Positions 5,605 to 49,320 of a stretch of DNA of 64,000 nt are shown here, piece by piece; within the stretch, counting starts at the first letter, position 1, and each line of letters starts with the position of its first letter. The translations under genes and the position numbers were made by a program. The stretch comes from an archaeon. GTDB taxonomy: Archaea > B1Sed10-29 > WALL01. Under the pieces are notes generated by a model that did no database searches, was not told where the DNA came from, and worked only from the letters and a program-made list of their open reading frames with translations. The DNA lies in NCBI GenBank assembly GCA_042584585.1, contig JBHOSQ010000002.1, positions 57,808-121,807 on the forward strand. Direction: 5' to 3'.

Positions 5605-8600
5605 TTAAGTCTTGCGGTAAATGAAGTACATTCCCGCGAACAAGAAAAGCAGGTACATGAACAGCTCGGCACCCTCGCCGCGGAGCGGAACCGCCGGCGG
5701 GGTGATGTCCTCGCCCTCGTATTCCCTGACTTCGCTGCGCACGCTGCTCGGCTGCAGCAGCGGCGGGTCAGTGCGGCCGGTGATTGGGTTGAAGCCGTTG
5801 AGCTTGAAGTCGTTGTTCAGCTCGACCGGCTGGCCGTTCACGAATATGTAGTTGTTGTTGTCCGCGTCGTAGCGGATGGCGCCGCCGGTCCCCTTCAGAT
5901 AAGTGACGAGCGCTTCCTCGAGCAATATGTTGCCTTTGCCGTCGTTTATCGTCAAAAGCGTCCGGCCAAGCGAGTCTACCTTGGTCTGGATTTCGCGGAG
6001 CAGGTTGGCCTCGACGTGTGGCTGGTCCTTCTCGTACACCAGTATGTCGCCGGTCGCCTCGTCAATCTCGACTTGGTCCGCGTCGTAAATCTCTTTTTCC
6101 CCGTTGTAGAACAACTCGAACTTGGTCTCGTTGTCCTCGTCGGTGAAGAACCTCCAGCCCGCCTTCTCCTCGTCCTGGACCTCTCCGTCTCCGTTCATGT
6201 CCTTCCACGCGTCCAGCCTCGTGATGGTGCCGAGCTTGTCGCCGCCCGGAACCCCCGCGACCGCCGCGTTAAGCCCGAGCAAGTTGTTCTGTGCGTCAAA
6301 CACTTCCAATTGCTCGCCGGTAACGCTGCGCAAAGGCACGCCCTGAGTGTAGTCAAGCCACTGCTTGCCACTCATGGTCGGCATGAAGTACTTGGGGAGA
6401 ATGTAAATCTTGTCGCCCTTCTTGATTATCGAGCCGCCGGTGAACACCGCGGACTCGAAGCCAAGTGTCTCGTCGTTGAACAAGACGTTCGCTGTGGCGG
6501 TGACGGTGGCGTCTTCCTCGCTGAAGCCGAACGAGCCGTCGGGCCGGTCGTGCTCGAAGCGGAAGTCGCCGTTGTAGTCCACGCTCGGGTAGATGGAGCC
6601 GCCGTCCGTGTTGATTACGCGGAGCGTGCCCATCATCCTTGCGACTTCGTCAAAGCCTTCTTCCTCGAACTTTGTGACGACGTCCTGGTTGATTGTGAGG
6701 CGTGTCCCGGTCTTGTCCACCGAGAACAGCATGCAATCAGTTGCCGCTGGCGTGTTCACCGCAATCGCGGTGTTGGGAATCACTAGTGCGGGGAGCTCGG
6801 TGTCCATCCACTTGAACGGCACCAACTCGTCCGTGACGATTGTCCTGCCGCCGACCGTGACCGACTCGCCCTGGATGTTGAGGCATGTTTCTTCCATTGG
6901 GTTGCCAGCGTCGTCAAGGCTACACAGGTTAATCGGTAGGTTGCCCTCGAGCCACTGGACTGAGACGTCCTGCAGGTGCGCGTAGTACACCTCATCCATC
7001 GCTATTCGGCCGGACGCGTCGTATCCCTCGGTGTGGACGTTGAGCTGCTGCTGCGAGAACTCTTCCAGCGGGTTGGTGACGTCGCCGAGGCCGCTGGCGT
7101 CAAGGAAGTCGCCGACGGGCAGGTTCTCTAGGCCGGGCAGGGACTTCAGTTGCTCTGCCTGCTGCTGCTCCGCAATCATGACCGGGTCGCTGTAGGACGC
7201 GGCGCCAATAATCGTGAAAGTGTGTTCCTGGCACGTGCCCAAGTCGCGGAGGCACGCCTCGCGGAGCTGGATTTTGTAAATCGCGAGCGCGACGTCTGCA
7301 AGCACTATTACCGCGCCGGCGGGACCAGCCAAGCCCATGGATGCAATCGCAACGTCGGCTACTGCAGTGCCGACCATTCCAGTGCTGCCCATTCCTTCCT
7401 GGTTGAGGCAGCTGCTCAGGACCGTGGCGCAGTTTTTTCTCTCGTCGCACGTGAAATCAGGGTTGTCGGACTCGCCTGTACGCACACATTGGGAAAGGTC
7501 CTCCATGTCGGTGTACTGCGCGGTCACGAACGCCTCACCCGCGAGGAGTGAGCTCTTCGTCGTTAGGAATAAGCCGAGCGGTGCGCCAAGTACGCTCGCA
7601 CCGAGCCCAAGGCCGCCGAGCGTCCCGCGGGTGAAGAACAGTGAATAAGAAGATGACGCAAGGAGCATGTTGGTGAACACGCCCCAGTTCCCTATCTTCT
7701 TAATGAAAGAGTCGAACTGCGTGAAGACTCCGCCCGGCAGGTTTTGCTCGTCCTCGTACATGTGGCCGTACAAGTCAATCTTGTTGGTCCACATGCCCAT
7801 TGCGGTTACGAGATTGTTTTCGCCGCCTTTTTTGTGCATGGTGCGGACGTCTTCGACCGCTGAGTAGACGTGGTCATCCCACTCGCGGATGTGCATGATG
7901 TAATGGTCGCCTTTCTGCTCGATGTGGGTGGTGCCGGTCGGGTTTTCTTCGACTACTTCGATTACTCCACCACTGGGCGGGTACATTATCCCGCCGAACA
8001 CGAGGACGTCGCCGAGCAGGTTTGCCTTCGAGACGAGGGGCTCCATGTTTTCGTTTACTTGTCCAAGCACGCCGAAGAAAATGGCGCCGAGCTCGCCGCC
8101 CGTGTAAGATGACAACAAGCCTTTGACGAGGCTGTTCTGGGCGAGGAGCACGATGACTGAGTCGTCTTGGTAGTACTCGCCGATTTCGTCTTTGTTGTAG
8201 CGGAGGGTCAGGCCCGCGCCGCTGAGCTCGAAGAAGCCCTGGCGGAAGAACAAGTCGTTGACCGAGTGCAGGCCGCGCGCGACCATGACCGCGAGCGTAC
8301 CTGGGCTCGTGTAAATAGCTATGGCGAGGCGGTTAAGCGAGTTTACTGCAACCTGAACGCCAATGCTTCCACCTGACCTAGCTGCACTTTCTGCTGCGTC
8401 AGGGAACACTTCCTTGAAAATGGCTGAGGGTGAGCCACTCGTAACAGCGGTGCCAAACCGCCTCAGGCCGCCTGCAGCCCTCTGCCCGACAATTCCATCG
8501 AGGAGCGCGATGCCGGCGTCCTGTTCGCCCATTAACTCTTTGGCAAGATCCTCATAGCCCAGGGGCGATAAGACTTCTTGTCCACCCTGACGAAACATAT

Positions 8601-10263
8601 TCTTTTCATTACGGAGGTAAAAGTCAAAGTCGTCTCCCCATCTTGTTTGTCTCTCATCTACTGGCAGGCGCAAGTAGCCTTCGTAAAGCTCGTCCCGCCT
8701 TTTCAGCCAGTCTTCTGCCTTGGCTACCTTCCCCTCCATCATATAGTCCAAGTCAACTGTTGCAACGCCCCGTTCCATCTTAGCGACGAGGCCTTGCCCC
8801 GAGACAGCCGACTGGATATCCCCGCTCTTCATGGCTCTACCCAAGTCGTCGTATTGCTTGAACAACTCTTTTCCGGTATCTGCGTCTATAATATTCTTTT
8901 CGTACTTGGCGAGCTGCCCTTGGTAGGTGGCTATATCGTCATAAGAATGCAGCCCAGCGGGGAAATTATTATTCAAATAATTAAGCAGCCGCTGGTTTTG
9001 GGCAAGTTCTGAAACTCCCCCATCACCCAGCCCATTCAACCGATACAATTCTTGAGCCATTTCAGGGTCATTAACAAACTCCTGGATGAAGTTCAGATTA
9101 GTGTAGTAATTGTAGTCCGTCATCATCCCCTTACTGATGGGAACCTCATCAATGTTCTGAAGGGCCTTGGCCCTCAACACATCCATCTGTTTTATGCCTT
9201 GCTCCCCTCGCGTCGAAAACAATTCTCCTAGTGCCTCCAATTGCTTTGGATCTTTTGGATCCAGACTCGCAACGTCGTCTGCGAAACCCCCATGCGTCTT
9301 CGCCAAACTGCGCAGGTCAGTCATAGCCAAGGAATCGTCCATCATCTTGCCGGCGCTTCCCCTGCTGGTGGCGACATCCCTAATCCACTGGAAAAACCCT
9401 TTTCGTTGGTTGGCGTTCGCTCCTTTTTTCAAGTGTTTTGCAGTTTTGAACGATGCAGCCGCGCCAACAACGCCGACCACTAAGTCGACCATGTCCAGCT
9501 TTTTCATGGCAGCCGTGTAAATCACGAGTGCCTGTGGAAGAATGAAAACAGTCGAGCCGGGGCCGCTCGTGGCCATGCTCGTCGTGAACTCCGTCATGCG
9601 GATTCGGGATTGGCCAAGGTCCAAAACATCCGCAGGCGCGAGCTCGCCGATTCCCTCAAGGCTCACGAAGAAAGACATTAAGTCGGCCTTCGTCTTCGCC
9701 TTCTCAAGCTCCGCGATGTAAGCATCGCGCTTGTCCAAGTCGCCCTTAGCCACGCACACATTCTCGGTCACGTTCGACGGGCTCTTCCCGCACATCGCAA
9801 GGTTTTCCCGGAGGTGGCCGCCGTACTCGATTCTTCCGGTGATTTCGGTGCCAATCAAGTAGCCGTTGTCCGGGCGCATTAAATCATCGAGAACCTCGTA
9901 GTAAAACACGGCGCCGTCAGGCCCCATGAAATAAAAGTTGTAGTTGTCGAGCAATTTCGAGCGGTCCGTGCGGGTGTCGACGCCCAATTCCTCGAGCGCG
10001 GACTGGCGGCGGTACTCTTCCGCAGAAGTCGCGACGTCCTGCGTCACAATCCCCTGCAAGGCAGTCGCCTGACGGTAGTCAAGCTCCACAACCTCAAGGG
10101 CGGAATCAACCGCACACGTGCTGCCAGGCTCGGAAATTAGCTCAGGCTCACCAGAAATTAGCTCGATTTCTTCCTCGCCGTTCTCCTGCGCCATAACGCC
10201 GAACGGCGTGAACAGCGAGAACAATAGGAGGGACAAAATGAATACAGCAGACGCCCTATCCAT
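5605..10263 (-). CDS. 1552-aa secreted protein with C-terminal membrane anchor, function unknown
   Basis: N-terminal signal peptide; internal Gly/Ala-rich hydrophobic segments; DMNGDGEVQDEE Ca-binding-like loop; PPAVP + TM + RKT tail. Confidence 0.8.
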   Translation of the reverse strand: MDRASAVFILSLLLFSLFTPFGVMAQENGEEEIELISGEPELISEPGSTCAVDSALEVVELDYRQATALQGIVTQDVATSAEEYRRQSALEELGVDTRTDRSKLLDNYNFYFMGPDGAVFYYEVLDDLMRPDNGYLIGTEITGRIEYGGHLRENLAMCGKSPSNVTENVCVAKGDLDKRDAYIAELEKAKTKADLMSFFVSLEGIGELAPADVLDLGQSRIRMTEFTTSMATSGPGSTVFILPQALVIYTAAMKKLDMVDLVVGVVGAAASFKTAKHLKKGANANQRKGFFQWIRDVATSRGSAGKMMDDSLAMTDLRSLAKTHGGFADDVASLDPKDPKQLEALGELFSTRGEQGIKQMDVLRAKALQNIDEVPISKGMMTDYNYYTNLNFIQEFVNDPEMAQELYRLNGLGDGGVSELAQNQRLLNYLNNNFPAGLHSYDDIATYQGQLAKYEKNIIDADTGKELFKQYDDLGRAMKSGDIQSAVSGQGLVAKMERGVATVDLDYMMEGKVAKAEDWLKRRDELYEGYLRLPVDERQTRWGDDFDFYLRNEKNMFRQGGQEVLSPLGYEDLAKELMGEQDAGIALLDGIVGQRAAGGLRRFGTAVTSGSPSAIFKEVFPDAAESAARSGGSIGVQVAVNSLNRLAIAIYTSPGTLAVMVARGLHSVNDLFFRQGFFELSGAGLTLRYNKDEIGEYYQDDSVIVLLAQNSLVKGLLSSYTGGELGAIFFGVLGQVNENMEPLVSKANLLGDVLVFGGIMYPPSGGVIEVVEENPTGTTHIEQKGDHYIMHIREWDDHVYSAVEDVRTMHKKGGENNLVTAMGMWTNKIDLYGHMYEDEQNLPGGVFTQFDSFIKKIGNWGVFTNMLLASSSYSLFFTRGTLGGLGLGASVLGAPLGLFLTTKSSLLAGEAFVTAQYTDMEDLSQCVRTGESDNPDFTCDERKNCATVLSSCLNQEGMGSTGMVGTAVADVAIASMGLAGPAGAVIVLADVALAIYKIQLREACLRDLGTCQEHTFTIIGAASYSDPVMIAEQQQAEQLKSLPGLENLPVGDFLDASGLGDVTNPLEEFSQQQLNVHTEGYDASGRIAMDEVYYAHLQDVSVQWLEGNLPINLCSLDDAGNPMEETCLNIQGESVTVGGRTIVTDELVPFKWMDTELPALVIPNTAIAVNTPAATDCMLFSVDKTGTRLTINQDVVTKFEEEGFDEVARMMGTLRVINTDGGSIYPSVDYNGDFRFEHDRPDGSFGFSEEDATVTATANVLFNDETLGFESAVFTGGSIIKKGDKIYILPKYFMPTMSGKQWLDYTQGVPLRSVTGEQLEVFDAQNNLLGLNAAVAGVPGGDKLGTITRLDAWKDMNGDGEVQDEEKAGWRFFTDEDNETKFELFYNGEKEIYDADQVEIDEATGDILVYEKDQPHVEANLLREIQTKVDSLGRTLLTINDGKGNILLEEALVTYLKGTGGAIRYDADNNNYIFVNGQPVELNNDFKLNGFNPITGRTDPPLLQPSSVRSEVREYEGEDITPPAVPLRGEGAELFMYLLFLFAGMYFIYRKT

Positions 10264-10316: not shown

Positions 10317-10745
10317 CTAGAGCAGCGCAAAGACCTGGAACACAAACACCATGAAATACCAGAAGACTAAGGACGCCAAAAGCGACAGGAAGTAAATCAT
10401 GAGGTGCCACGGCAGCACCGGCCACTTCTCCATGATTTTGCGGTAGACCATTGCCATTGGCATCACGAAGACGACAAAGGTATAGGTCGCGGGCTCGAAA
10501 AAAGTCAGGATGGGAATAGCCGTCCCGTACCAGAAGGCGATGACGGTTTGTGCCAGAAGGAAATACGCCTCTGTCGCGAGAAACGCGGAAAAGTACCACG
10601 GCTTCAGGTTCTTGAGCGCGAGCTTCGCCGCAACCGCCGCGGCAAACGCCACGAGCGACGAAAGAAACGCGATTATGAGCGTCGCTTGGTAGTCGCCGTA
10701 CAGGAGCGGCAGCCTCAAAAACGTGAAATAAATCTCGAGCAGCAT
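10317..10745 (-). CDS. Hypothetical multi-pass membrane protein at the end of the pilin operon
   Basis: About 4 hydrophobic segments; ATG at 10745 (MLLEIY) inferred. Confidence 0.7.
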   Translation of the reverse strand: MLLEIYFTFLRLPLLYGDYQATLIIAFLSSLVAFAAAVAAKLALKNLKPWYFSAFLATEAYFLLAQTVIAFWYGTAIPILTFFEPATYTFVVFVMPMAMVYRKIMEKWPVLPWHLMIYFLSLLASLVFWYFMVFVFQVFALL

Positions 10746-13198: not shown

Positions 13199-13657
13199 TT
13201 ACCGCTCAGCCCTGAAGCCAATGCTGCACAATTCGCCTCGTCCACTCGGGCAGTACGCGCGTATCGATCCCGACACGTCCGACTTCACCGCCAAATGGCC
13301 TTCGGTGGTTGCAGTGCCTTCAGTACACTCGAACTGGGCCTCAGAAAACTCGTAGCCCGTACACTGGCTCATTGAGCTGCCCTCGCAGCAGAAGCCAACC
13401 GAGTACTCGTTCAGCTCGGCAGCGCGAGCCACCGCGTTCGCAAAGAACTCTTCGTCCTCATTGAACCTGACGACGTTCGAGACAGAGGCACGGCCCCCGC
13501 CACGGACTTCCTTCAGTTCCTGGCCCATGACCCTCAACGGGTCTTCACTGGCAATCGTAATTCCGCCGATGATGTTCAGCAAAATCACTAGGATTGCGCC
13601 TGCCACCACCGCAGCAATCAATAATTTGAAAGCGTCAAAAGCTTGTCCACGTTGCAT
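13199..13657 (-). CDS. Pilin-like protein (class III signal peptide)
   Basis: MQRG/QAFDAFKLLIAAVVAGAILVILL; has its own TATA box at 13697-13704. Confidence 0.85.
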   Translation of the reverse strand: MQRGQAFDAFKLLIAAVVAGAILVILLNIIGGITIASEDPLRVMGQELKEVRGGGRASVSNVVRFNEDEEFFANAVARAAELNEYSVGFCCEGSSMSQCTGYEFSEAQFECTEGTATTEGHLAVKSDVSGSIRAYCPSGRGELCSIGFRAER

Positions 13658-18718: not shown

Positions 18719-18753
18719 CCTGCTTAAAAACGTGGGGGGAGTATATAAGAGTA

Positions 18754-19269
18754 ATGCTGCTCGAAAAGCGGAAAGGGGTAAGGTTTGCTGTTGGGACCGC
18801 GGTATTCGGCGGATTGGCGTACCTCGTTGCCTCGGGCCTGATGCCCGTGCTGAAGCCGTTGACCGCGGCAATGTCGGCAGCGGTGCTGTCGCTTTTTGGC
18901 TCGGCGTATTCCCAGGGCGCACTCGTTTTCTTCAACTCGCTTTCTGTGCAAGTGATTCCGCTTTGCGTGGGCGACATTGAGATCGCCGTCTTGGCGGGCG
19001 CGATGTTCGCGACCGAGGACCGCACGGTGCGCGACCGAATCCTTGGGGTAACGGGCGCGTTTGTTTTCGTGATGGCGATTAACTCCTTGCGCATCGCGGC
19101 GACGCTGCTCGCGTGGCAGGCGTGGGGAATCGGCGCGGTCGAAGCCGTACATTCCGCGCTGTTCCGCACGACACTGGTTGTCGCAATTGTCGGGTTTTAT
19201 GGGGCCTGGTATTTGCGGGACGTGATTGGCGAAAAGGTTAAGTTGCACAAGCTGCTTAAAGAAAGGTAA
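18754..19269 (+). CDS. Exosortase/archaeosortase-family protein
   Basis: VIPLCVG (Cys), NSLRI (Arg), AVH (His) in a multi-TM protein. Confidence 0.8.
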   Translation: MLLEKRKGVRFAVGTAVFGGLAYLVASGLMPVLKPLTAAMSAAVLSLFGSAYSQGALVFFNSLSVQVIPLCVGDIEIAVLAGAMFATEDRTVRDRILGVTGAFVFVMAINSLRIAATLLAWQAWGIGAVEAVHSALFRTTLVVAIVGFYGAWYLRDVIGEKVKLHKLLKER

Positions 19270-20084: not shown

Positions 20085-20111
20085 ATTGCCCCGCTTGGTA
20101 ACGGGGAGTGA

Positions 20112-40600: not shown

Positions 40601-43600
40601 AAGGGGTGCCGCGCGTCTACGACCACAGCGAAGAAGTTATTCCGTCTTACCACGTGCCGGAGTACGGCTCGACAGAGGGCAGGGTGTTCGGCGCGCTGCT
40701 GAGCTTCAACAACAGTGACCAGAACGACAAGAGCCTCAAGTTCATCATCCAGGACGAGCACAAGACAATTGACAACAAAGTGCCGTGGGCAAGGTTTTAC
40801 AAGCAGGCGCTCCCGGTGTACATCGACGCGGACTTTGCGGCGGAATGGCCGTTCATGTCGGAGAAGCAGGCGTTCATCCTTGGGCACACGACCGCGACGC
40901 ACTGCGACAATTTGACCATCGCAATAACGGAAGAGGCCACGGAACTAACAACAACGAAGATCAACTGCACGGTCGAGAACAACGAGTTCGCGTTCGACTT
41001 CGTGCCGACCGGAGTGGGCTGGCACACGGTCAACGTCGGCATTGACGTGCCGACACTGGACGGCAAGTCACAGGTGTACGAGGACGAGATACGCATCTAC
41101 GTCACGAACCTGCCAGAGATGACGGCCACCGCAAGCGCGGCGGCTTCGGTCAGGGAAGGGCAGAACATCACCATCACGGCAACGGTCTACAACACGGACC
41201 CCACTTACGCGACCACGATACTCAGCTACACCGGCAGCTACGGGAACCTTGACCCCGAGCAGAAGACGTCACTCGAGCCGCGGGCGTGGATATCCATTGG
41301 GACGAGCCACATCGCGACGGCGGCACTGGATGTAATTCAGCCGAGCACGAGCACGAAGATTGACTTCGTGTGGGAGGCGACCGGCGGCGGGCCTTTGACC
41401 GCCACGGTGTGCGCGGGATACTTCAAGTGGGACGGCGAGAGCTGGGACGTGCTTGAGGGAACGGAAAACTGTGACAACATCCCGATTGTCGTAAACGCCG
41501 AGGCAGACACCACGCTGATGGACCTGGGCATTGAGATGGACCTCAACGCGACGACCCATTACAAGGTGGACCTTGACACTGTCACTCTTAACGCCACAGT
41601 CATTAACCACGGCGAGAACTACACCACTTCGGACTTTGGTTTGAGTGTGTACATGTGGGTCACCAACGAAGAAGGGTTCCCCGAACTGAACAGTGCGCAC
41701 ATTGGCGGCGCCGAGGGGCTCAAGAACGGAACCAACTACACGGTAACCAAAGAGATTAACATGGAGGCGTTCGACTATGGAGTCTACACTGTCACGGTGT
41801 GCGCGGTGTACGACGACTACGAGGGAAGCACCTACGCGGACGGCGGCGGGGAGCCGGAGTGCGCGAGCCAGTCGTTCACCATCGAGCGCGAGCCGAGGGA
41901 CTCGTACGAGGGAGAAAAGACGCTTGACATATTCGGCGGCAGCAATAAACAAGAAGAAGACACTGCGTCGACAACAGGTAACGTCAACATAAGATACTAC
42001 ATCGAGAACGGCGATTATGCAACTGCGCTTGAGAAGCTGCTGTTGATTGACCGCCAGGAAGAGCCGACCATAGAAAAGATTGAGTCGCCCGTATGGACGC
42101 TCAAGCCCGGCGAAAGCGACTGGACTTTCTTCATCGGCAAGGGAATGCTGGCCGTTGGCAATGATGACATCAGGAGCAAGACGTCGAACCTGGAGATTTA
42201 CCTGTTCGAGAGCGATGCCGATACCTCTGGCCTAGAGCCGTGGGAGCAGGGCTCGTTCAAGCACGGATGGGTAGACTACGACCTGGCTCTGACGGGGTAT
42301 GACGACGAGTACAACGAGGGGCTGGACATTTACGCGGCGTCTCTTGGGGCGGCGATAATCCGCAAGGACGCGGACAGCCCATGCAGCGTCAAGGACTACA
42401 AGAATTACCCACAGCAGCCACCACTCAGCTGGTACCTCCAGAGCTGCAATGTGCTGCCGGTCGACTCGGACACGGACAACTGGCTGCTCGCGAACGGGAC
42501 TGCGGTCGAGCACATCCTCAACAATCCGGGCGGGTACAGCAGCGACAACGACGCCAGCCACCTCGTGATTCCGTACCACAACGAGTACGACATGTTCCTG
42601 AGGTACTTGCCGGAGCAGATGCAGGCAAGGATTCACTCGGGCAACATAACCGTGTACGCGAAAGGCGACCGGTTCGTCGTCGAGAAGACGTTCACTGTGT
42701 CCGGCGTTGACATCAAGCCAGCAACGCACACGTTTGACTTCACTGACGAGACCGCGGCCGGGAACAATTACGCGCAGAAGAGGGTGCAGCTGACGGTCAG
42801 CAACCTCGGGGACTCTGAAATCGAGATCGAGAAGATTGTGTGGAACCCGTCATCCGTCGCGCAGACCTATAACCTTGGCGTGAACGCAATCGGCTCGTAC
42901 GACAAGTTCGACTACAAGCAGCTGGACCCGTTCAAGATTCCGTCGGAAGGCATTGGGTACATCGACGTTACTTCGACGCCGTCGGTGGAAGTGTGTAAGG
43001 GCGAGACGACGGCTGGGCTCGAGATTTTCCTGGTCGACGAGGAAGTGCCGTGGAAAGTGGTGTTCAGCCTCAAGTGCCCGGGGATTGCAGAAGAAGACGT
43101 GGGCGCGGCTGCGGCGCAGCTAGTGTACAAGGAAAAGATTTCCCCCGACGCAATCAGCACGAGCCCACGCGCTTGTGAAGTGAGTGAGAGCGGCGGGAAC
43201 GAAATCGTGCGGGTGTGCGACGCGGAACAGTTCACAATGGCTGTACTGCAGGACGCGGCCGACGGGGGCAGGACACAGGCAGTGTATGCGCTCGGCGAGG
43301 AAGAAGTCACCGCGACAGTTATGGACAACGCAAGGGCGGCGCATGGGTTCACCAAGCTGAAGGACGTGATGCTGATTGGCCAGATGAGCACCGGCGACAC
43401 AAACCAGAAGCAGGCCTGGCTCGACAACGAAAACATCGGGTGCGGCAAGGTCATTGTCAGTTTCGAGAAACTCAGTGGGAGCAAGGGCGGCGACGAAGAC
43501 AAAGACGTCTTGATTACTCCTGTGACCGTTACCACGAACGCTACGTGGTGCGCGGGCGGCAGTGACGGCGACCATGCGGTCGCAATCGGGCTGCTCAATC

Positions 43601-44796
43601 TTGACGGCGCGTTGCGGCCGGACCAGGGCAGCGGCGTGCAGTACACTGGCTTCAGCGGAATGGACAAGTTCTTGACCGCGATGAACAACGCGGTCACGAA
43701 GGGCAGGCTAATTGTTGGGCTGCCGGACGTGTTCGGCTACGCCGGGACGAGCCCGAGCGAGGTGGACACTGAGTTCAGCGCTGACTACGACTACCGAACG
43801 CACACGTTTGTCTACAAGGACTGGCACGCCAGCGAGCTCGTGTCAAGTGACTGGGTGTGGCTGAGGGACCAGGTGACCGTGAATAACCCGGTTGTGCATT
43901 ACACCCAGATTGTTGATGACGTCAGCAGGGGCGGTAAGATTGTGCGGCTTGGTTTAGCTTACAACGACGCGGGCGTAAGTGCGTCCACGCTGCAGCAGCA
44001 CAGGGAAGACCTTGCGGTTGACCTTGTCAACTCGTGGACAGGAGCATCAATCGGGACTGCAGTCTGCGGCAAAGGCCACACGAAGGTGACCGGCCACACG
44101 GCGGCGTCTGGAAGCTGGTGCGAGGTCAGGATATATGGCTTGCCGATGGATGGTTACATCACTCGCCAGCAGCTGAAGCCGCCACACATACCTTTCACAG
44201 AAGTCATGAAGGAACCGGTCGGCACAAGTGTTAACGCAGACAGTGACTTTGCGATGGCCGGCCAGCTTTGTTATTGGACGGCAAGCGGGAATTGGATATA
44301 CGAAACGTACAAATCGTTTGTCTATTTCGACGCGGCCAGCGAGCTCGCCCCCAGCGCAAAAATCAAGTGGGTTGCCCTAGAGCTTTATGGCAAAGTCCCG
44401 CTCTACCAAGGACATGGCATACGGCCCGACTCTTCGATGCCTAACGACGAACGTGACGTGATGGTGCAGCGGGCGGTTAGCAACTGGAACCACCCCCGTG
44501 AGCCACTTGTGATCACGGACTTCAACTTCTTGCTTTATGACGAGACGACGGCCGAGCGGATGTGGGGTGGATGGAGCGCCTATAGTCGGAATGAGATACT
44601 TGACGTCCCTGAAAACACCGTGAACCGCAATGGCCTGACCAAGTTCGCGGTGCGGACAAGGGATGAATACTTGAGGGACCCAGTTCCCTGCCCAGGTGAT
44701 ACCCAAGGAACGAGCATAGGAGAAGTGATAAGCTTCTACACCTCCGAGGCTCCCGCAACCAAGCGGCCAGTCCTTGAAATCGCCTACGACCCGTGA
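37672..44796 (+). CDS. Giant surface protein 3 (2374 aa), paralogue with extra Ig/CARDB-like domains and a DNRLRE-like C-terminal domain
   Basis: Same leader; ITITATVYN and VTLNATVIN repeats; YKSFVYFD...IKWVALELY...FYTSEA...RPVLEIAY; TTTATATA at 37615. Confidence 0.85.
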   Translation: MGFYSELEKKWYKLVESLDKKGIPIRAITDPIETAGLPSLPVVAGVGLVLLALVAFTLLPAQGATLMLQVTSDGSAVEGAEVAAMFGDTEVFSTTGPDGYAELMLPFNQEVDLSITKSGCDTRADSVLLEQDDEIEMSLSCKGSPSFAACITSAQEIDTVTLTTPTGAYAKGCTVGIRNSDYSAADLGWLVSGKKLFMTYSADNCPQEGQSVDISCNDYSYSADMEDFINDAQKDLEIALVEEDDDYYAASAADRVYTATVHVKGAGSSLKGIRVSATDGSGNALSFTYSNIMLQATTGTDGIAMLVIPENTVYYINAEDTGTSYATKISGSYIATEDKTINVELEKGFETLLTVLNMNDNSAVPNAYIDLLLDDVQVAYGFSDSGGKAKFKLEKADYTAKVSKANYVMTSVDFVGGTSNTQILLEPLDDTNSGFLNVEVKNAHGVGEPIEGVKVKLFSGDEEIKHSYSNDDGLVSFGRIKAGSYTITGEEEGSDTVSVTIVAGETTDSDLTVIPPQEKLKVFTQVNGEHQNGVDVEIYDITYSVNIPTLLGSFVSGTNRRVEFSYDKGSKLYLKASFTNPNTGEKYGPVVSAPIDLDNDTEYTIDVTGVKNNVGIKILNDDKQEHTGSLEEGGNYYVQLDVGIPYYDPQKKETYDSVYVEFFTGGIGDLEDIEATPILIRKVTANDFVVEDPVVGSMVLSDSYVYHQANFPESTGASKYIRLDIIDYSEGLVFPMQIPIHVRSNVQGENSVINYRVFWKSPEGAEFATNGGKWTQQPITIDTKTSGWRLLDTHPHFYFYDAWLSYDRAGNNVAASWATTSHAAAPEFAEGSAFYLQVRGKARVPTNNYGVEISAMPQAGYPYAIPTSYSGSIVRTNGVVQEIFPADAISINEISPASGSQGLDYSLDADDELRLAIRMETRLKAEGGVGEDAPVEIAVFDDYGRQKLLLNVRSLKPSEITPVSNLIATQVVGSLIEGVPRVYDHSEEVIPSYHVPEYGSTEGRVFGALLSFNNSDQNDKSLKFIIQDEHKTIDNKVPWARFYKQALPVYIDADFAAEWPFMSEKQAFILGHTTATHCDNLTIAITEEATELTTTKINCTVENNEFAFDFVPTGVGWHTVNVGIDVPTLDGKSQVYEDEIRIYVTNLPEMTATASAAASVREGQNITITATVYNTDPTYATTILSYTGSYGNLDPEQKTSLEPRAWISIGTSHIATAALDVIQPSTSTKIDFVWEATGGGPLTATVCAGYFKWDGESWDVLEGTENCDNIPIVVNAEADTTLMDLGIEMDLNATTHYKVDLDTVTLNATVINHGENYTTSDFGLSVYMWVTNEEGFPELNSAHIGGAEGLKNGTNYTVTKEINMEAFDYGVYTVTVCAVYDDYEGSTYADGGGEPECASQSFTIEREPRDSYEGEKTLDIFGGSNKQEEDTASTTGNVNIRYYIENGDYATALEKLLLIDRQEEPTIEKIESPVWTLKPGESDWTFFIGKGMLAVGNDDIRSKTSNLEIYLFESDADTSGLEPWEQGSFKHGWVDYDLALTGYDDEYNEGLDIYAASLGAAIIRKDADSPCSVKDYKNYPQQPPLSWYLQSCNVLPVDSDTDNWLLANGTAVEHILNNPGGYSSDNDASHLVIPYHNEYDMFLRYLPEQMQARIHSGNITVYAKGDRFVVEKTFTVSGVDIKPATHTFDFTDETAAGNNYAQKRVQLTVSNLGDSEIEIEKIVWNPSSVAQTYNLGVNAIGSYDKFDYKQLDPFKIPSEGIGYIDVTSTPSVEVCKGETTAGLEIFLVDEEVPWKVVFSLKCPGIAEEDVGAAAAQLVYKEKISPDAISTSPRACEVSESGGNEIVRVCDAEQFTMAVLQDAADGGRTQAVYALGEEEVTATVMDNARAAHGFTKLKDVMLIGQMSTGDTNQKQAWLDNENIGCGKVIVSFEKLSGSKGGDEDKDVLITPVTVTTNATWCAGGSDGDHAVAIGLLNLDGALRPDQGSGVQYTGFSGMDKFLTAMNNAVTKGRLIVGLPDVFGYAGTSPSEVDTEFSADYDYRTHTFVYKDWHASELVSSDWVWLRDQVTVNNPVVHYTQIVDDVSRGGKIVRLGLAYNDAGVSASTLQQHREDLAVDLVNSWTGASIGTAVCGKGHTKVTGHTAASGSWCEVRIYGLPMDGYITRQQLKPPHIPFTEVMKEPVGTSVNADSDFAMAGQLCYWTASGNWIYETYKSFVYFDAASELAPSAKIKWVALELYGKVPLYQGHGIRPDSSMPNDERDVMVQRAVSNWNHPREPLVITDFNFLLYDETTAERMWGGWSAYSRNEILDVPENTVNRNGLTKFAVRTRDEYLRDPVPCPGDTQGTSIGEVISFYTSEAPATKRPVLEIAYDP

Positions 44797-44801
44797 ATGG
44801 T

Positions 44802-45191
44802 ATGATACAAGAAAAATGGGCCGGGATAGTTGACTCGCTCGCCGACAAGGGCGTGCCGCTTTATTTAGTGGCTGACCCACTGGACGACCACGGCATCCCC
44901 AGCTGGGCTGTTTTGGCGGCTATTTGGCTTGTTTTGGTGTTTGGCTTGGTTTTTGTGCTTTTTCCGGGTGTGAAGTATAGTTTAGACATCACAACAACGC
45001 CCGGAGCCAAGGTGCTCGTCACGTACGACGAAGCCCAGCTCACCAGCACAGCAGAAACCGGCACAGTAAGCTTTAAACTGCCGCTGGGAGCCGCCGCAAA
45101 CGTCAAAATCACGATGGCCGGGTGCGAAGGCGAATCCCTGGAAGTAGTGATGATTGACCACTACGAGTTCGAGAAAGAGCTAGTCTGTTGA
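44802..45191 (+). CDS. Mini-paralogue: leader + TM + one beta-sandwich domain
   Basis: EKWAGIVDSLADKGVPLYLVADPLDDHGIPSW; ITMAGC...LVC matches the first domain of the giants. Confidence 0.8.
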   Translation: MIQEKWAGIVDSLADKGVPLYLVADPLDDHGIPSWAVLAAIWLVLVFGLVFVLFPGVKYSLDITTTPGAKVLVTYDEAQLTSTAETGTVSFKLPLGAAANVKITMAGCEGESLEVVMIDHYEFEKELVC

Positions 45192-45587
45192 TTCCAGCAG
45201 GCCTTTAATCACGTGCTTCAGCGACCGCTCGCCCCTCTGCAAGTGGATTTTGTCGAGGTGGTGCTTGGCCTTTTCGTGGAACGGCGCGTCCTCGGGCGGC
45301 GCGTCCTTTGACTTTATTTTTCCCACGAGCGAGCGCTGCGCAGTCTTGTGCAGTGACTTTTCGCCCGTCTTCAATTGCATCTTGTTAAAGTGGTGGCGCA
45401 TTTTTTCGTGGAGCGGGGCGTGCTCCGGAGGCTTTTCCACGTACTTTTCCTTGTTGCCGTCAGTCAAGAAGCCCTTGTAGCGGAGGTCCCGCAAAAACTT
45501 CAGTGGCCGCGTCCACGTCAAAGTGTGCTGGATTTGCTGGGCCTGCACCGCGCCGCTCCCGCCGAATGGCTTGGGCTTTTTGGGCAT
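45180..45587 (-). CDS. Small basic His-rich hypothetical protein with an internal repeat
   Basis: PPEHAPLHEKMRHHFNKMQLKTGEKSL / PPEDAPFHEKAKHHLDKIHLQRGERSL. Confidence 0.65.
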   Translation of the reverse strand: MPKKPKPFGGSGAVQAQQIQHTLTWTRPLKFLRDLRYKGFLTDGNKEKYVEKPPEHAPLHEKMRHHFNKMQLKTGEKSLHKTAQRSLVGKIKSKDAPPEDAPFHEKAKHHLDKIHLQRGERSLKHVIKGLLESTD

Positions 45588-45647
45588 AGGCAAACAAACT
45601 GCGAGCCAGTATAAAAAACTGTGCCCGGTAGAAGGCGCCATACTATT

Positions 45648-45677
45648 GGGGGGCCGCGCCAATTGGCGGCGGCCCCC
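45648..45677. repeat. Intergenic imperfect palindrome, CCAATTGG core
   Basis: GGGGGGCCGCGCCAATTGGCGGCGGCCCCC. Confidence 0.75.
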
Positions 45678-45751
45678 GAGGGCGCTATGCATTATTGTAG
45701 GTGGCCCACCAATAGATAACGCTTTTAAACACGGGCTACTTCTTGTAGGGC

Positions 45752-46114
45752 ATGGGCTTCCTGGACTCGGTGCTCGGCACAGGCATGGGCGCCATGGGTG
45801 GGGTATGCGGATTCATCCCCAACTGCGAGTTCATTATGCTCGGCCTCAAGATTGTGATGCTCTTGTTCATAATCGGGTGGGTCAGGAGCCACCTCGGCGG
45901 AGGATTGGTCGCCACAATCGTGATGCTGTTCATTGGGTACTTGGCATTGTTCCAGTACTTCGCGGTGTTCGGGCCGCTCACGATTGTTTACTTGCTGATT
46001 ATAATGGGTGTCGGCGGGGCAATTACTGACCTGGCATTCGGCAGGGAGTACTACGGCCTTGGCGGAGAATCGGGGGCGGCAAGCCTCCAGCAAAGGATGA
46101 TGAGGCACGAATGA
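45752..46114 (+). CDS. Small membrane protein (cluster gene 1)
   Basis: About 3 TM; IIGWVRSHLGGGLVATI. Confidence 0.8.
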   Translation: MGFLDSVLGTGMGAMGGVCGFIPNCEFIMLGLKIVMLLFIIGWVRSHLGGGLVATIVMLFIGYLALFQYFAVFGPLTIVYLLIIMGVGGAITDLAFGREYYGLGGESGAASLQQRMMRHE

Positions 46115-46452
46115 TGAAGGGATTCATACAGTTCATTCCCGCGGGGTTCATGCTTCCCGCGCTTTTCATAGTGTTCCTGCTAATCATTTTCGTGCCAATA
46201 GTCGCCATCACGCTTTCGAGCGAGCTGATGCTCTTGTTCCAGGTCGGGGCGGCAATCATGGTGTTTTCGTGGGTCCGGAACGTCGTGGGCCCGGGATTGT
46301 TGAGTTACGCGATTGCGGGCGTTTTGATTTACATATTCGTGTTCATCCTGCCCCAATTCACAATGGGGCTGTACATAATTTGGACGATAATGGGCTTCGG
46401 CCTGTTCGGTATGCTGTTCTGGGGCCTGACCTTGTTCAGGCTGGCCGGGTGA
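46111..46452 (+). CDS. Small membrane protein (cluster gene 2)
   Basis: About 4 TM; VFSWVRNVVGPGLLSY resembles gene 1. Confidence 0.8.
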   Translation: MMKGFIQFIPAGFMLPALFIVFLLIIFVPIVAITLSSELMLLFQVGAAIMVFSWVRNVVGPGLLSYAIAGVLIYIFVFILPQFTMGLYIIWTIMGFGLFGMLFWGLTLFRLAG

Positions 46453-46499
46453 CACAGTAATATAAAGAAGAAAGTCAAGAATAATTGCAAGGTGGAAAA

Positions 46500-46748
46500 A
46501 TGGGTGACCTTTGGACCGACCTACAGCTGGCGGGAATACTGTTCGTATTCGTCTACTTGACGCAATGGGCCATCGGCATGACCGGCTCGCGCAGGGTAGG
46601 CATACTATTAGCCATAATCATCGTGTACCTCACGATATACCAGCACATGGAAGTGCTCGTGATTGTGATAGCACTGTTCTTCGGATACGCGTTCTTCGAG
46701 ACGTTCGAGAACACGTTCGTCCCCATGGGCAGTGGAATCAAGCCATAG
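46500..46748 (+). CDS. Small membrane protein (cluster gene 3)
   Basis: About 3 TM; LTQWAIGMTGSRRVGI; TATA-like TATAAA at about 46461. Confidence 0.75.
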   Translation: MGDLWTDLQLAGILFVFVYLTQWAIGMTGSRRVGILLAIIIVYLTIYQHMEVLVIVIALFFGYAFFETFENTFVPMGSGIKP

Positions 46749-46757
46749 GAGGAGTGA

Positions 46758-47045
46758 ATGGATACTTTCACCATTGTCATCTTCCTCATTATGATAATGG
46801 TCGCGATAAGCCAGAACGTGCTTTGGGCGGCAGCGCTGCTCATGCTGTTGTTCGTCGTGGCCGTCCGCAGCAAAGGGCTAATTGCCATGGCCGTCATCGG
46901 CGTGCTGCTCGCGTACATGTTCCAGGCGCAGCAGCAAGTCGTGATGCTCCTCGTCGCAGTCGTGGTGCTGGGGATATTCATGTTCACAAAAGGCAAGGGC
47001 GGGCCAGAAATGTACTCGCCCGGCATGCTCCTCGGGGGAAGATAA
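46758..47045 (+). CDS. Small membrane protein (cluster gene 4)
   Basis: 4 short TM; AGGAG RBS. Confidence 0.8.
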   Translation: MDTFTIVIFLIMIMVAISQNVLWAAALLMLLFVVAVRSKGLIAMAVIGVLLAYMFQAQQQVVMLLVAVVVLGIFMFTKGKGGPEMYSPGMLLGGR

Positions 47046-47402
47046 ATGGACATACTGACGCTGTTGCTGCTGGCATCCATTGTCTGGGTGGGCTTCACCT
47101 ACAACATGGCGTGGCTCTCGCTAATCAGTGGGCTGCTGCTGGCGGTATACATCTGGGGCGTCAGGAGTGAGCCACCGCCCGCGCCCGTTGCTTCAGGCAT
47201 GCCCAAGGTACGGCCAATCATCGTGAAGCGCAGGTACTCCGGACCTCCAAGCATTTACCCCAGCACGATGAGGATGCGCGTCAACCCACGGTGGAACACT
47301 TATGACTGGTGGGAAAACGCGTTCGGCGCAGCCGGCGTTGGGGTAGGCCTGCTCGCGCAAATGTTCAAGCCCGCCGGAAGAGGCAGGATAGGGAAGACTT
47401 AG
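47046..47402 (+). CDS. Small membrane protein (gene 5, hairpin-anchor paralogue)
   Basis: 2 TM + Pro linker + PIIV..P.IYP..RVNPRW...WENAFG. Confidence 0.8.
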   Translation: MDILTLLLLASIVWVGFTYNMAWLSLISGLLLAVYIWGVRSEPPPAPVASGMPKVRPIIVKRRYSGPPSIYPSTMRMRVNPRWNTYDWWENAFGAAGVGVGLLAQMFKPAGRGRIGKT

Positions 47403-47403
47403 T

Positions 47404-47790
47404 ATGGACCAAATACAGAGGCCCGTCGGCCTCATGGCATTCGTGCTTTTGCTCGCGATTTACCTAGACCTTACGTGGCTCGCGGCACTAGTCGGCGCGG
47501 GAGCCTTTTTCGTCATACTCTCGACAGTGAACTTCAGCAGGCCAATGCCCGTGGCACAGGCAGCGCCGCCACAAAAAGAGGAAGAAGTGCTGACTCCAGT
47601 GGTCGTGCAGGACACAGGCGAAGCGCCTTATTTGTATCCCCCGGATTTCAGGCTCAAAGTGAGGCCAAACTGGCCCGCCAACACGTTCTTCGAGAACGCG
47701 TCGGGTGGCCTCGGGCTGGCGCACCGTGGGCTGCACAGCATGATGGGCGGAAGGCCACTGCAGCGGTCGGGGTGGTTCAATGGACCTTGA
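47404..47790 (+). CDS. Small membrane protein (gene 6, hairpin-anchor paralogue)
   Basis: 2 TM + PVVV..PYLYP..KVRPNW...FENASG. Confidence 0.8.
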   Translation: MDQIQRPVGLMAFVLLLAIYLDLTWLAALVGAGAFFVILSTVNFSRPMPVAQAAPPQKEEEVLTPVVVQDTGEAPYLYPPDFRLKVRPNWPANTFFENASGGLGLAHRGLHSMMGGRPLQRSGWFNGP

Positions 47791-48148
47791 CAGCGAACAG
47801 ATCATACTGCTGGGCGCGGTCTGCGTCGCCGTCTACCTAGCGGGATACGGCTCGCTCGCAATTGGGATATTCATCCTTCTCATTATTTCATCTGTCGTGA
47901 TGGGTGGAAAGAAAGTGATAAAGCCCAAGGGCACGTCCATGGGCGGCGTGCGAATCAAGGGCGCGGAAGCCCTGGAGCCCATAATCATTGAGACCACGCG
48001 TGGCGCACCGTTCCGGATTCCCGCGAACATGAACGTCCGCGTGCGCTCGAACTGGGGCGGCCAGACCTGGATTGAAAAAGCCATGGGCAAGGGCGCCGGC
48101 CGTGCCGCTCGCATGATGTACCGGTCCACGGGCCGAAGCCAGTACTAG
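47780..48148 (+). CDS. Small membrane protein (gene 7, hairpin-anchor paralogue)
   Basis: 2 TM + PIII..PFRIP..RVRSNW...IEKAMG. Confidence 0.8.
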   Translation: MDLDSEQIILLGAVCVAVYLAGYGSLAIGIFILLIISSVVMGGKKVIKPKGTSMGGVRIKGAEALEPIIIETTRGAPFRIPANMNVRVRSNWGGQTWIEKAMGKGAGRAARMMYRSTGRSQY

Positions 48149-48157
48149 TGATGCCTA

Positions 48158-48667
48158 ATGATTGGACTGCTCGCCGCAATCGCCCTCATTTTCTTGGGCG
48201 CGTCAATTAAGTCAGAGCTATTGATTGGTTTCGGGTTCATCGCGATTGCGCTGCAGCTTACTCTTGACCGCTTGCAGCCGAGGCCACTCCCGCAAGCAGT
48301 GGCGCAGGCGGCGGCAAGGCCGCGGCTGAAGCACAAACTGATTGAGGCCCCCGAAGACATGTGGGAAAAGCAGGAGGACAAGACGTGGCAGGCCATGATG
48401 AGTGGTGGGCCATCTGCCCTGAACATCGGGGGGGCCGGGAACTTCATGGGCTTTGCCTCGCGGGGCATTGGAAGCCCGATGGCTGGCGGATTGATGCGCG
48501 GAATGCTTCCGTTCCAGAACTACGGGAGCAGCGGGGTTGCGGGAATTCTCGAGAACATGTTTATTGGGTTTCCGATGGGCATGGGCAACTTTTTTGGGGG
48601 GAATGTACCGTCCGAGCCGTTTAGCCGGCCGCACTACACTGACCCCGATAGTGGGGAACCGCTTTGA
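48158..48667 (+). CDS. Small membrane protein (gene 8, Gly/Met-rich tail)
   Basis: 2 TM + Gly-rich amphipathic tail. Confidence 0.7.
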   Translation: MIGLLAAIALIFLGASIKSELLIGFGFIAIALQLTLDRLQPRPLPQAVAQAAARPRLKHKLIEAPEDMWEKQEDKTWQAMMSGGPSALNIGGAGNFMGFASRGIGSPMAGGLMRGMLPFQNYGSSGVAGILENMFIGFPMGMGNFFGGNVPSEPFSRPHYTDPDSGEPL

Positions 48668-48705
48668 CGTATAGGTTTATTAGGCATAATGGGGTAAGCC
48701 AAGTG

Positions 48706-49320
48706 ATGAAAAGGCTTTTGCTGGCGCTGCTGGTTTTGAGCGTTGCATTTGCAGTTGATGTGGACGATGCCACGGGCTGCGAAAAGTATTCTGACCACGT
48801 TATTTGCCCGCAAGCAACGGACGTGGCACTGGAAATAACTTATACGACTGACGCGGACTGCTATTCGCTGCAGAACGAGTTCGGCAACCTCGAGGACCTC
48901 GGGTGCTACGCGGACGCCGTCACGAGCGGCATTGAGTACGAGGCGTGCGGAATGTACGTGCCGTTCGACGAAAACGATATTTTGATTAGCGAAATTGACT
49001 ACGAGCACCAGTGCTCGACAGAAAAAATAGCTGCGGGGGAAACGATTTACGTCTTTGGCTTCCAGGACCAGTTCACTGGGTGCGAGACGATTGAAGAAGA
49101 CGAGTTTTACGGCGAGTACTTGTGCCCCGTGAACGGCCAGAAGCGCGGGGTCACTGGAGCCATCGAGTACTACGAGGGCGACTACGGCTTGTTGCTTTAC
49201 ACGCAGGAAGAGCAGGCGATTGCCGGCGGGCTCGAGGACATAGGAATCGCGGTCGTGGTGCTAGGAATAATCGTCTTGTTTATTTACGCGCTCTACATCT
49301 GGAGCGAGAGGGAGAAGTAA
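48706..49320 (+). CDS. Acidic Cys-rich secreted protein with C-terminal TM
   Basis: MKRLLLALLVLSVAFA signal peptide; C-terminal TM + EREK. Confidence 0.8.
   Translation: MKRLLLALLVLSVAFAVDVDDATGCEKYSDHVICPQATDVALEITYTTDADCYSLQNEFGNLEDLGCYADAVTSGIEYEACGMYVPFDENDILISEIDYEHQCSTEKIAAGETIYVFGFQDQFTGCETIEEDEFYGEYLCPVNGQKRGVTGAIEYYEGDYGLLLYTQEEQAIAGGLEDIGIAVVVLGIIVLFIYALYIWSEREK

Follow-up and report, generated by a model that had tools for sequence, protein, structure and literature searches.

The stretch of DNA considered here, below called the window, comprises 64,000 nt from an archaeon (GTDB lineage B1Sed10-29; WALL01; assembly GCA_042584585.1, contig JBHOSQ010000002.1, positions 57,808-121,807 of the forward strand), and all coordinates count from its first letter. 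The genome, 1.02 Mb in 32 contigs, is 84% complete and has a G+C content of ~57%. Window positions 5605-49320, i.e., 43.7 of 1017 kb or 4.3% of the genome, are taken up by a composite surface locus whose two gene sets diverge from a 35-bp gap (18719-18753). The minus-strand set, which begins at 18718, codes for a type IV filament (T4F) machine and a large secreted protein; the plus-strand set, which begins at 18754, codes for an archaeosortase-family enzyme, a large pilin-like protein, three giant proteins with a short paralogue and an operon of small membrane proteins. A sequence-only reading of the window had recognised no housekeeping gene in the locus and had suggested that its parts may form one attachment or junction apparatus. 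Scans with Pfam and NCBIfam matched no housekeeping family inside 5605-49320, in agreement with the first of these claims, and the ATPase, the platform protein, the sortase, the giants and their short paralogue all lie where that reading had placed them.

Three samples were used for comparison (G, C and L numbers are our handles for genomes, contigs and loci). The phyletic survey covered 41 genomes, 31 of them members of the same class and 10 from outside it. Seven related regions were fetched, two from the same genus, three from the same order and two from the same class. A profile of the platform protein (A1, built from the 724-aa protein of the window and six orthologues) was searched in a species-representative genome collection, where it matches 46 loci, which include 40 DPANN loci from named records and 6 Methanocella-type loci. 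In named public records the closest loci go by the labels Candidatus Iainarchaeum, Diapherotrites, Micrarchaeota or Nanobdellati archaeon, which marks the organism as an Iainarchaeota-type DPANN archaeon.

The type IV filament core

The assembly ATPase (767 aa; 16415-18718, minus strand) consists of an N-terminal extension of ~290 aa followed by a FlaI/PilB/TadA-class core, which is FlaI/TadA-like at ~291-693. The protein matches Pfam T2SSE over the cut-off (5.1e-19), and fifteen NCBIfam secretion-ATPase models match it as well, each under its equivalog cut-off, among them FlaI (134.5 bits, 4.7e-39; cut-off 550) and TadA (2e-38). Orthologues with 53-91% identity are found in 26 of the 31 class genomes. 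The end of the ATPase gene is overlapped by the start of the platform gene (14278-16452, minus strand), whose 724-aa product has seven hydrophobic segments and appears to carry two T2SSF-like repeats in one gene. Its relation to T2SSF is seen through its orthologues: 23 of the 39 compared with the Pfam T2SSF model match at E<=0.001, 5 of them at or above the curated cut-off; the matched segment spans residues ~140-325 in 22 cases and falls in the second half in one, and these orthologues match the platform profile of the window protein at E<=1e-100. The profile itself had 0 hits among PDB sequences, and an hhalign comparison with the two T2SSF proteins of the window returned a probability of 2%. 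Because 23 of 39 orthologues match T2SSF, we assign the 724-aa protein, by sequence similarity, as a divergent, fused two-repeat platform.

Six pilin-like genes follow on the minus strand: P1 (13708-14277), P2 (152 aa; 13199-13657) and P3-P6 (12452-13003, 11807-12439, 11302-11853 and 10766-11311). These calls are motif-level evidence, the pilin family models of Pfam and NCBIfam having given no match; all six families have a short basic leader ending in [KR]G and then a hydrophobic helix, both conserved in orthologues. The orthologues of P1, 31-58% identical within the order, begin with M.RGQ or KGQ and continue into the hydrophobic helix, and the true start of P1 is probably internal, near its ...SRGQQ motif. 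The N-terminus of P2, (K/R)GQAFDAFKLLIAAVVAG, is almost invariant out to the class level, and P2 is the sole pilin found by BLAST beside the platform gene in the class-level genome G015; it is our candidate for the major pilin. The order and overlaps of P3-P6 are kept in all five genus- and order-level relatives. The sequence-only reading had counted a seventh pilin-like gene at 10317-10745 (minus strand), which we reject: its 142-aa product is a polytopic membrane protein with three hydrophobic segments at the threshold used and without a [KR]G leader. Orthologues of this protein (142-150 aa) hold the same position in five relatives.

A far larger pilin-like protein of 698 aa, with 20 Cys, is encoded in the plus-strand set (20112-22208). 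Its class III-type leader, KRG followed by FAVFTPMVG, belongs to a [KR]G leader and hydrophobic helix that are conserved in the orthologues; these are 25-49% identical within the order, and at the class level the N-terminus alone is recognisable. No Pfam model matches the 698-aa protein, also when it is scanned in 260-aa pieces. Prepilin peptidase A24 (PF01478) is encoded by two genes of the genome that exceed the cut-off (contigs C5 and C3), and none lies inside the locus. As for the claim of the sequence-only reading that the locus is not an archaellum, the archaellin family PF01917 has no match in the 84%-complete genome, while the same search was positive in four archaeal genomes used as a control (ArlH, ArlF and ArlG were not searched); an archaellum identity is rejected on this result.

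Among described archaeal filament systems the core most resembles System 2 or subclade 4F, either of which is possible when its sequence features are compared with the published descriptions. As these are given in the relevant parts of PMC13705601 and PMC4858521, the shared traits are an ATPase with a long N-terminal domain, one platform gene, a number of pilins of which some have clear class III motifs and others do not, extra membrane proteins and large surface proteins of adhesin- or S-layer-like type, to which the 4F description in PMC13705601 adds an adhesin-like protein. The window locus agrees with this in its ~290 aa ahead of a FlaI-like core and its one platform gene. In their section on this subclade, Makarova et al. 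2016 give a Cys-rich N-terminal domain of the ATPase as a 4F trait and cite the Methanocella arvoryzae locus (PMC4858521). The Methanocella orthologues of the window ATPase do have such a domain, with 11-13 Cys in 320 aa, whereas the domain of the window ATPase keeps the aligned start with its 'DC' motif and has only 4 Cys. The core also differs from what these two sources describe for System 2 and 4F in being accompanied by a dedicated archaeosortase, N-terminally tagged giants and a nine-gene membrane operon. With the Epd pilus, or System 1, of the Methanococcus maripaludis type, the core shares a type IV adhesion filament with many minor pilins; it differs from that system in having one 724-aa platform gene instead of two half-size ones. 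According to the first 30 Iainarchaeum entries of table S5 of a recent census, 26 of these genomes are labelled System 1 (PMC13705601; Sivabalasarma & Albers 2026), and the consulted text of the same source calls ordered T4F loci rare in Nanobdellati. Elsewhere, Figure 2A of PMC6393860 depicts a DPANN pilus island with unrecognised pilins, and a passage of PMC5498576 mentions two type IV pilus (T4P) systems in a Micrarchaeon.

A System-1/Epd-like pilus core is present in the window separately from the locus, at 5-2977, where a gene for a T2SSE ATPase (2.4e-38) is followed by two half-size T2SSF genes (1383-2977); homologous sets are also found near the main locus in G015 and two further genomes (G006, G008). 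Some class members encode a second paralogous ATPase, 37-41% identical to that of the window, on contig C13 of G011 and contig C54 of G024 (L105, L106). The G024 gene has a platform gene beside it and lies next to the gene of an unrelated 1858-aa protein; beside the G011 gene, which lies on a short contig, no platform gene was detected.

The archaeosortase, the giant proteins and the membrane operon

The first gene of the plus-strand set (18754-19269) encodes a minimal archaeosortase/exosortase-family protein of 171 aa, which matches TIGR04178 at 33.9 bits (cut-off 23). The sequence-only reading was thus right in placing a sortase-type enzyme here, and its name should be archaeosortase-family enzyme; we write sortase for short. 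The scores for the ArtD, ArtE, XrtH and pacearchaeosortase models (20.9-27.8 bits against cut-offs of 80-125) do not place it in these subfamilies. Cys71, Arg113 and His133 are invariant in 8 aligned orthologues, and we take them to be the active-site residues of archaeosortases and exosortases. An orthologue (E<=2.3e-27) is present in 26 of the 31 class genomes.

The start codons of the ATPase and sortase genes are 35 bp apart, and the two genes are adjacent and divergent in 14/14 class-level genomes that have both on one contig. The intergenic region (18719-18753) contains two A/T boxes, TATATAA (18742-18748), whose centre is 27 nt from the ATPase ATG, and TTAAAAA (18724-18730), whose centre is 27 nt from the sortase ATG. 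Archaeal TATA boxes usually lie about this far from the point where a leaderless mRNA starts, and on this ground the two boxes are predicted to be promoters. Downstream of the sortase gene we noted a further open reading frame (ORF), absent from the gene list of the sequence-only reading, which would encode a K/E-rich orphan protein of 271 aa (19269-20084, plus strand). Its membership in the locus is doubtful: no match was found in the locus of any fetched relative nor elsewhere in the genome, and in the same-genus genome G002 the sortase gene is directly followed by the 698-aa gene. Another K/E-rich ORF, of 222 aa, at 49333-50001, has no counterpart in the fetched relatives or the rest of the genome. 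Both are either lineage-specific insertions or not genes.

The far end of the minus-strand set encodes a 1552-aa secreted protein (5605-10263) that begins with a signal peptide and is anchored in the membrane by its C-terminus. Across the class, members of this family end in a Pro motif followed by a membrane helix and a basic tail, which is the tripartite architecture of exosortase and archaeosortase substrates. Within the window's order the motif is seen as PAVPLRGEG or IPTRPE (general form (V/I)P(L/T)RPE), and in class-level relatives as AQLPSVPEG, LPSIPPG or LPWTPTE (general form LPSxP(E/T)(G)). The family is found in 26 of the 31 class genomes, as one open frame per genome; the gene lies ~4-9 kb from the ATPase gene on the same contig in the class-level genomes read, and in the relative L041 it stands directly after the sortase gene. 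Judged from its C-terminal sequence, the 1552-aa protein is a probable archaeosortase substrate. No other protein of the locus has a C-terminal signal with the Pro motif; the 218-aa exoprotein at 48664-49320 has a C-terminal membrane helix and a basic tail without it. Archaeosortase A of Haloferax volcanii is reportedly paired with PGF-CTERM substrates, and exosortase with PEP-CTERM (Haft et al. 2012). The window shares with these systems the TIGR04178 signature, the Cys/Arg/His residues and a nearby protein with a tripartite C-terminus, but its enzyme is just 171 aa long and far under the subfamily cut-offs, the motif is LPSxPE/VPxRPE and not PGF, and there is a single apparent substrate, while the enzyme gene adjoins giants without a C-terminal signal. 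The 1552-aa protein has no match in Pfam, in the PDB (by profile, best E 0.43) or in the Atlas. When the three giants, the 698-aa protein and this protein were scanned against Pfam in pieces of 260 aa, nothing beyond N-terminal beta-sandwich domains came up save two weak matches, to CARDB (23.4 bits, cut-off 22.7) and, under the cut-off, to TubZ-like_C. The last 913 aa of the 1552-aa protein, a conserved part, were modelled with AlphaFold2 (AF2); the model has a predicted local distance difference test score (pLDDT) of 48.1, and VIA-align returned for it helical-hairpin matches alone (Z<=8.9), in a low-confidence stretch.

The three giants, of 2547, 2514 and 2374 aa (22258-29901, 30047-37591 and 37672-44796; plus strand), are paralogues with 24-34% mutual identity in BLAST segments. 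They share one layout, in which an N-terminal tag of ~45 aa is followed by one membrane helix, a stalk of beta-sandwich domains, the first of them with two cysteines, and ~1900 aa without a family match. Their Pfam matches (CarboxypepD_reg, SpaA, SdrD_B and Big_1) are confined to the first ~550 aa, and a C-terminal anchor or signal was not found. When residues 560-1760 of the first giant were used in a word-indexed homologue search, the protein itself and one other, at 57% identity, were returned. The tag, with the consensus Y..LE.KWY.LLD.LD.KGIPVY..IDPIE..GIPSLP (alignment A2), is covered by no Pfam or NCBIfam model; it is present in 26/31 class genomes and in 0/10 outside the class. A profile of the tag and the helix (A9), searched among 1.84 billion proteins, matched 1073 representatives of 50%-identity clusters at E<=0.001, a number that falls to 473 at E<=1e-10. 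All 150 matches listed carry the tag within their first 125 residues, and 87 of them have a length of 1200 aa or more. Twenty-one tagged giants from public data were scanned for domains: 19 have CarboxypepD_reg-type domains, 1 a discoidin domain and 2 PKD domains, and no enzyme or toxin domain was matched at E<=1e-5. Given the beta-sandwich stalks, the CarboxypepD_reg domains in 19 of 21 and no enzyme domain, we read the giants as putative adhesins. A mini-paralogue of 132 aa (44793-45191, plus strand) consists of the tag, the membrane helix and one beta-sandwich domain; it matches all three giants in BLAST (1e-7 to 6e-14) and has counterparts in three relatives (G001, G002 and G004).

The plus-strand set ends with an operon of nine small membrane proteins (45752-49320), recognised by their hydrophobic segments and paralogy; the sequence-only reading had counted eight, and the gene at 46485-46748 is now included. 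Three paralogous 3-helix proteins (45752-46114, 46111-46452 and 46485-46748) are followed by a further hydrophobic protein (46758-47045), three paralogues with the conserved motif PIIV...PP.YP...V.P.W (47046-47402, 47404-47790 and 47780-48148), a protein rich in Gly, Met and Phe (48158-48667) and the anchored acidic exoprotein already mentioned. The triplicated membrane protein is present in 28/31 class genomes, usually as three tandem copies, and in 0/10 outside the class. In the window, as in relatives belonging to many families, the operon comes after a tagged gene; in three further genomes (G016, G018 and G025) it lies directly 3' of a tagged giant. Its gene order is collinear in 16 of the 20 loci that were fetched with the downstream HerA-like gene as their centre. 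The 560-bp gap between the mini-paralogue and the operon contains an antisense ORF of 170 aa (45180-45692, minus strand) with a gene-like third-position G+C of 0.75 and a two-fold internal repeat; an ORF at the same position in G002 is 44.5% identical to it over 128 aa.

Conservation and interpretation of the locus

The ATPase, platform and sortase genes are present in all seven fetched regions and tagged giants in six, the seventh contig ending within the 698-aa gene; the membrane operon is found in all three regions that reach past the giants. In the 40 named DPANN loci, fetched with flanks around the platform gene, a sortase occurs in 26 and a tagged gene in 20; 8 of the 14 loci without a sortase end 0-2 nt upstream of the ATPase ORF. 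The sortase and giant genes diverge from the ATPase gene in most loci, are co-directional with it and downstream of the platform gene in four (L056, L057, L060 and L073) and are rearranged by one internal inversion in L041. Under these three arrangements they stay within a few kb of the ATPase-platform pair, with platforms just 35-44% identical to that of the window. An arrangement that recurs in 7/7 regions and in most of the 40 named DPANN loci is not due to chance, and what we describe is a real, strongly conserved, class-wide surface locus of Iainarchaeota-type DPANN. G019 gives identical matches on two contigs (C1 and C8) for the ATPase, the tag, the sortase, the membrane triplet and the HerA-like gene, so that it seems to hold the locus twice, by redundancy or by real duplication.

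The ATPase orthologue, the tag and the orthologous sortase occur in the identical 26 of the 31 class genomes and are absent from the same five. Of the accessory families (the tag, the sortase orthologue, the 1552-aa family and the membrane triplet) none is found in the 10 genomes outside the class, except for a weak sortase-family match (4.4e-8) in G037. The ATPase reaches further: 4 of these 10 genomes have it at 34-48% identity, and in three DPANN among them (G035, G038 and G039) the orthologous ATPase gene stands beside an orthologous platform gene, with pilin-like proteins of 386-543 aa encoded near the pair in G035 and G039. In the three of the six Methanocella-type loci whose orthologues were compared by BLAST, identity to the window proteins is 35-41% for the ATPase and 26-27% for the platform; the ATPase alignments cover query residues 19-744 and 15-751 in two and begin at residue 200 in the third. 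The single apparatus proposed by the sequence-only reading is partly supported. The accessory parts share one phyletic range and a kept order, and independent phyletic patterns without conserved synteny were not seen among them, whereas the ATPase-platform pair has a wider range of its own.

We consider it moderately probable that the locus is a composite cell-surface locus built around a T4F machine and providing the surface with which the cell attaches to a host or a substrate. The [KR]G leaders would be cut by the prepilin peptidases, whose genes lie outside the locus, and the ATPase and platform would polymerise P2 as the main subunit, with P1 and P3-P6 serving as minor or priming pilins and the 698-aa protein as a large subunit on or beside the filament. 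The dedicated archaeosortase would cleave the C-terminal signal of the 1552-aa protein and re-anchor the protein at the surface. The giants would be type II membrane proteins, anchored by the N-terminal helix with the tag in the cytoplasm, which project long beta-sandwich stalks and whose fast-evolving distal parts may act as adhesins; the nine small membrane proteins may assemble in the membrane into a complex that inserts, clusters or anchors the giants. The back-to-back TATA-like boxes, 35 bp apart, may put the ATPase and sortase genes under joint control. A role in host contact is plausible by functional analogy with the T4P of episymbiotic Saccharibacteria. These too are ultrasmall organisms with reduced genomes, in which, as stated in the relevant part of PMC9894109, T4P mediate host association; they differ in being bacterial and in having no homologous accessories, and here the host is presumed. 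A bolder proposal, which we find rather unlikely, is that all parts make up one undescribed composite organelle, the host-attachment device of a DPANN class, in which the motor, the archaeosortase and the nine-protein complex would insert, sort and cluster giant fibres that carry the tag as an address label.

Several observations weigh against the attachment locus as proposed. Deoxyhypusine synthase (DHS) adjoins the 1552-aa gene in 10 order-level loci, and the family B DNA polymerase (PolB) gene is syntenic as well, in 17 of the 20 loci around the HerA-like gene. Gene order is thus conservative here even for unrelated genes; because these housekeeping genes are equally syntenic, synteny overstates functional linkage and proves little within the order, and the evidential weight rests on class-level and deeper comparisons together with the shared phyletic range. 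This range, in its turn, is partly artefactual, because linked genes drop out together from incomplete assemblies: the five genomes lacking the ATPase, the tag and the sortase are 61-87% complete, and the perfect co-occurrence is therefore partly trivial. The inversion in L041 keeps the genes adjacent by itself. Six DPANN loci with 1.3-7.6 kb of upstream flank have no sortase or tag match, and the regions around the ATPase-platform pairs of G035, G038 and G039 gave no match to the tag, sortase, 1552-aa and membrane-operon profiles, save a marginal one to the tag (0.0041) in a 71-aa ORF of G038; likewise, the sortase, the tag, the 698-aa protein and the 1552-aa family are found in 0/6 Methanocella-type loci. 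The window platform protein itself has no Pfam match. The sortase gene is found beside the giants much more often than beside the 1552-aa gene, although no C-terminal signal is present on the giants, so the substrate of the enzyme is not settled; its action on the N-terminal GIPSLP-helix region of the giants is speculation and would need an unusual topology. A look-up of public sequencing runs with window positions 14001-24000 listed none. Finally, we know of no cultured member of the lineage, and the host is thus assumed.

Some of this evidence would also suit a set of neighbours that do not form one machine, i.e., two or three independent units, which would be an ordinary adhesion pilus operon (from the ATPase to the 1552-aa gene), the giants with the sortase, and the membrane-protein operon, which share an inherited gene order in a compact, slowly rearranging genome. 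The synteny of PolB and DHS, the occurrence of the ATPase-platform pair without accessories in Methanocella-type loci and other DPANN, and the 560-bp gap with its conserved antisense ORF between the giants and the membrane operon all point that way. We nevertheless regard such independence as unlikely, as it sits poorly with the persistence of the sortase and giant near the ATPase-platform pair under three arrangements and at such low platform identity, with the divergent adjacency of the ATPase and sortase genes across all 14 class-level genomes and with the single phyletic range of all accessory families. It is also conceivable that the giants and the 1552-aa protein build a surface-layer (S-layer)-like coat and that the locus serves envelope biogenesis and not cell contact. 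The archaeosortase substrates of model archaea are S-layer glycoproteins (Haloferax ArtA), and a locus that is near-universal in its class and takes up 4.3% of the genome would suit such a function. The discussion of subclade 4F loci in PMC4858521 notes S-layer-like proteins too. Against a coat stand the giants themselves, which are 22-53% identical where the ATPase keeps 59-91% and vary in number from 1 to 4 copies among relatives; because of this fast evolution and variable copy number they fit adhesins better than a lattice protein. The genome also has other very large surface proteins, and we hold an envelope-building role to be quite improbable.

Very improbable, in our opinion, is a machine for the transfer of DNA or other macromolecules, of the Ced/Ted or type IV secretion kind, with a channel made of a HerA/VirB4-like protein together with the small membrane proteins, and with a pilus whose part would be to draw cells together. 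What suggests it is the run of small proteins with 2-3 helices and the HerA-like neighbour, whose predicted fold is closest to HerA (E 3.6e-13), with the VirB4 protein TrwK at rank 32, and whose language-model neighbours are DUF87/HerA clusters (score 0.94). The Walker A motif GxxxxGK[ST], on the other hand, is absent in 16/16 aligned orthologues of this protein, which makes ATP-driven transport by it unlikely; its gene stays with the PolB and coiled-coil genes and is parted from the membrane operon in G018; and no family match in Pfam or NCBIfam ties the small membrane proteins to VirB2, VirB3 or CedA.

The core of the locus is a known kind of machine, and the accessory set is new to the literature searched. 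No description of a T4F core combined with an archaeosortase, tagged giants and a membrane operon was found, with the reservation that further supplementary tables and papers may contain more; the words 'archaeosortase', 'giant' and 'Iainarchaeota' do not occur in the main text of PMC13705601, nor 'archaeosortase' and 'DPANN' in the accessible text of PMC4858521. A strongly ordered locus fills a gap in a T4F census that calls ordered loci rare in these archaea. DPANN make up a large part of archaeal diversity. For studying the way in which such archaea make contact with hosts or surfaces, a locus found in nearly every class genome searched offers concrete, testable candidates: P2 as the putative major pilin, an archaeosortase with a single apparent substrate, whose C-terminal motif is new, an N-terminal tag, likewise new, found in no fewer than 473 protein clusters, mostly of giants (E<=1e-10), and a nine-gene membrane module without family assignment.

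Neighbouring genes

Beyond the membrane operon lies a conserved block (50003-54763) composed of a coiled-coil gene (50003-50455, minus strand), the P-loop-less HerA-like gene (~50472-51940, plus strand; ~480 aa), a second coiled-coil gene (51943-52434, minus strand) and the gene for PolB (plus strand). The first three are conserved neighbours whose membership in the locus is uncertain, and the HerA-like gene, once considered a member, was withdrawn after the PolB control and the breakpoint seen in G018. In that genome the block of coiled-coil, HerA-like, coiled-coil and PolB genes lies on another contig, while the membrane operon still comes after the giant. In two loci of family f5 (L081 and L083) the HerA-like gene is still preceded by the membrane operon, while neither PolB nor the flanking coiled-coil gene was detected next to it. 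The HerA-like gene is present in 27/31 class genomes, and PolB follows it in most of the fetched loci, as given above.

The AF2 model of the HerA-like protein has a pLDDT of 84.2, and HerA hexamers are its best Foldseek matches in the PDB (probability 1.00, template modelling score 0.47; 9x1m, 4d2i, 7wrw and 7o43 are the HerA/VirB4 comparators). No Pfam DUF87 match was obtained for it at E<=0.01, and the best E of its profile against PDB sequences, 0.019, is not significant. With HerA translocases and VirB4 the protein thus shares the fold and differs from them in having no Walker A motif, no DUF87 match, and coiled-coil and PolB flanks. A complex prediction for the tag of the giants (residues 1-46) and the HerA-like protein, for which controls were not run, gave a score of 0.00. 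A HerA-like pseudo-ATPase tied to PolB may deserve a look of its own.

Further downstream, at 61098-63725, the window encodes an 875-aa protein with Big_13, Big_7 and MopE-type metal-binding motifs, which is weakly similar to other very large proteins encoded on contigs C4, C5 and C11. As to the start of the HerA-like gene, there is no in-frame ATG, GTG or TTG before 50588, whereas the orthologues start ~35 aa earlier; the ATG at 50472 encodes MRVL, as in the same-genus orthologue, but is one base out of frame. This looks like a one-base gap in a run of G, through either an assembly error or a real frameshift.

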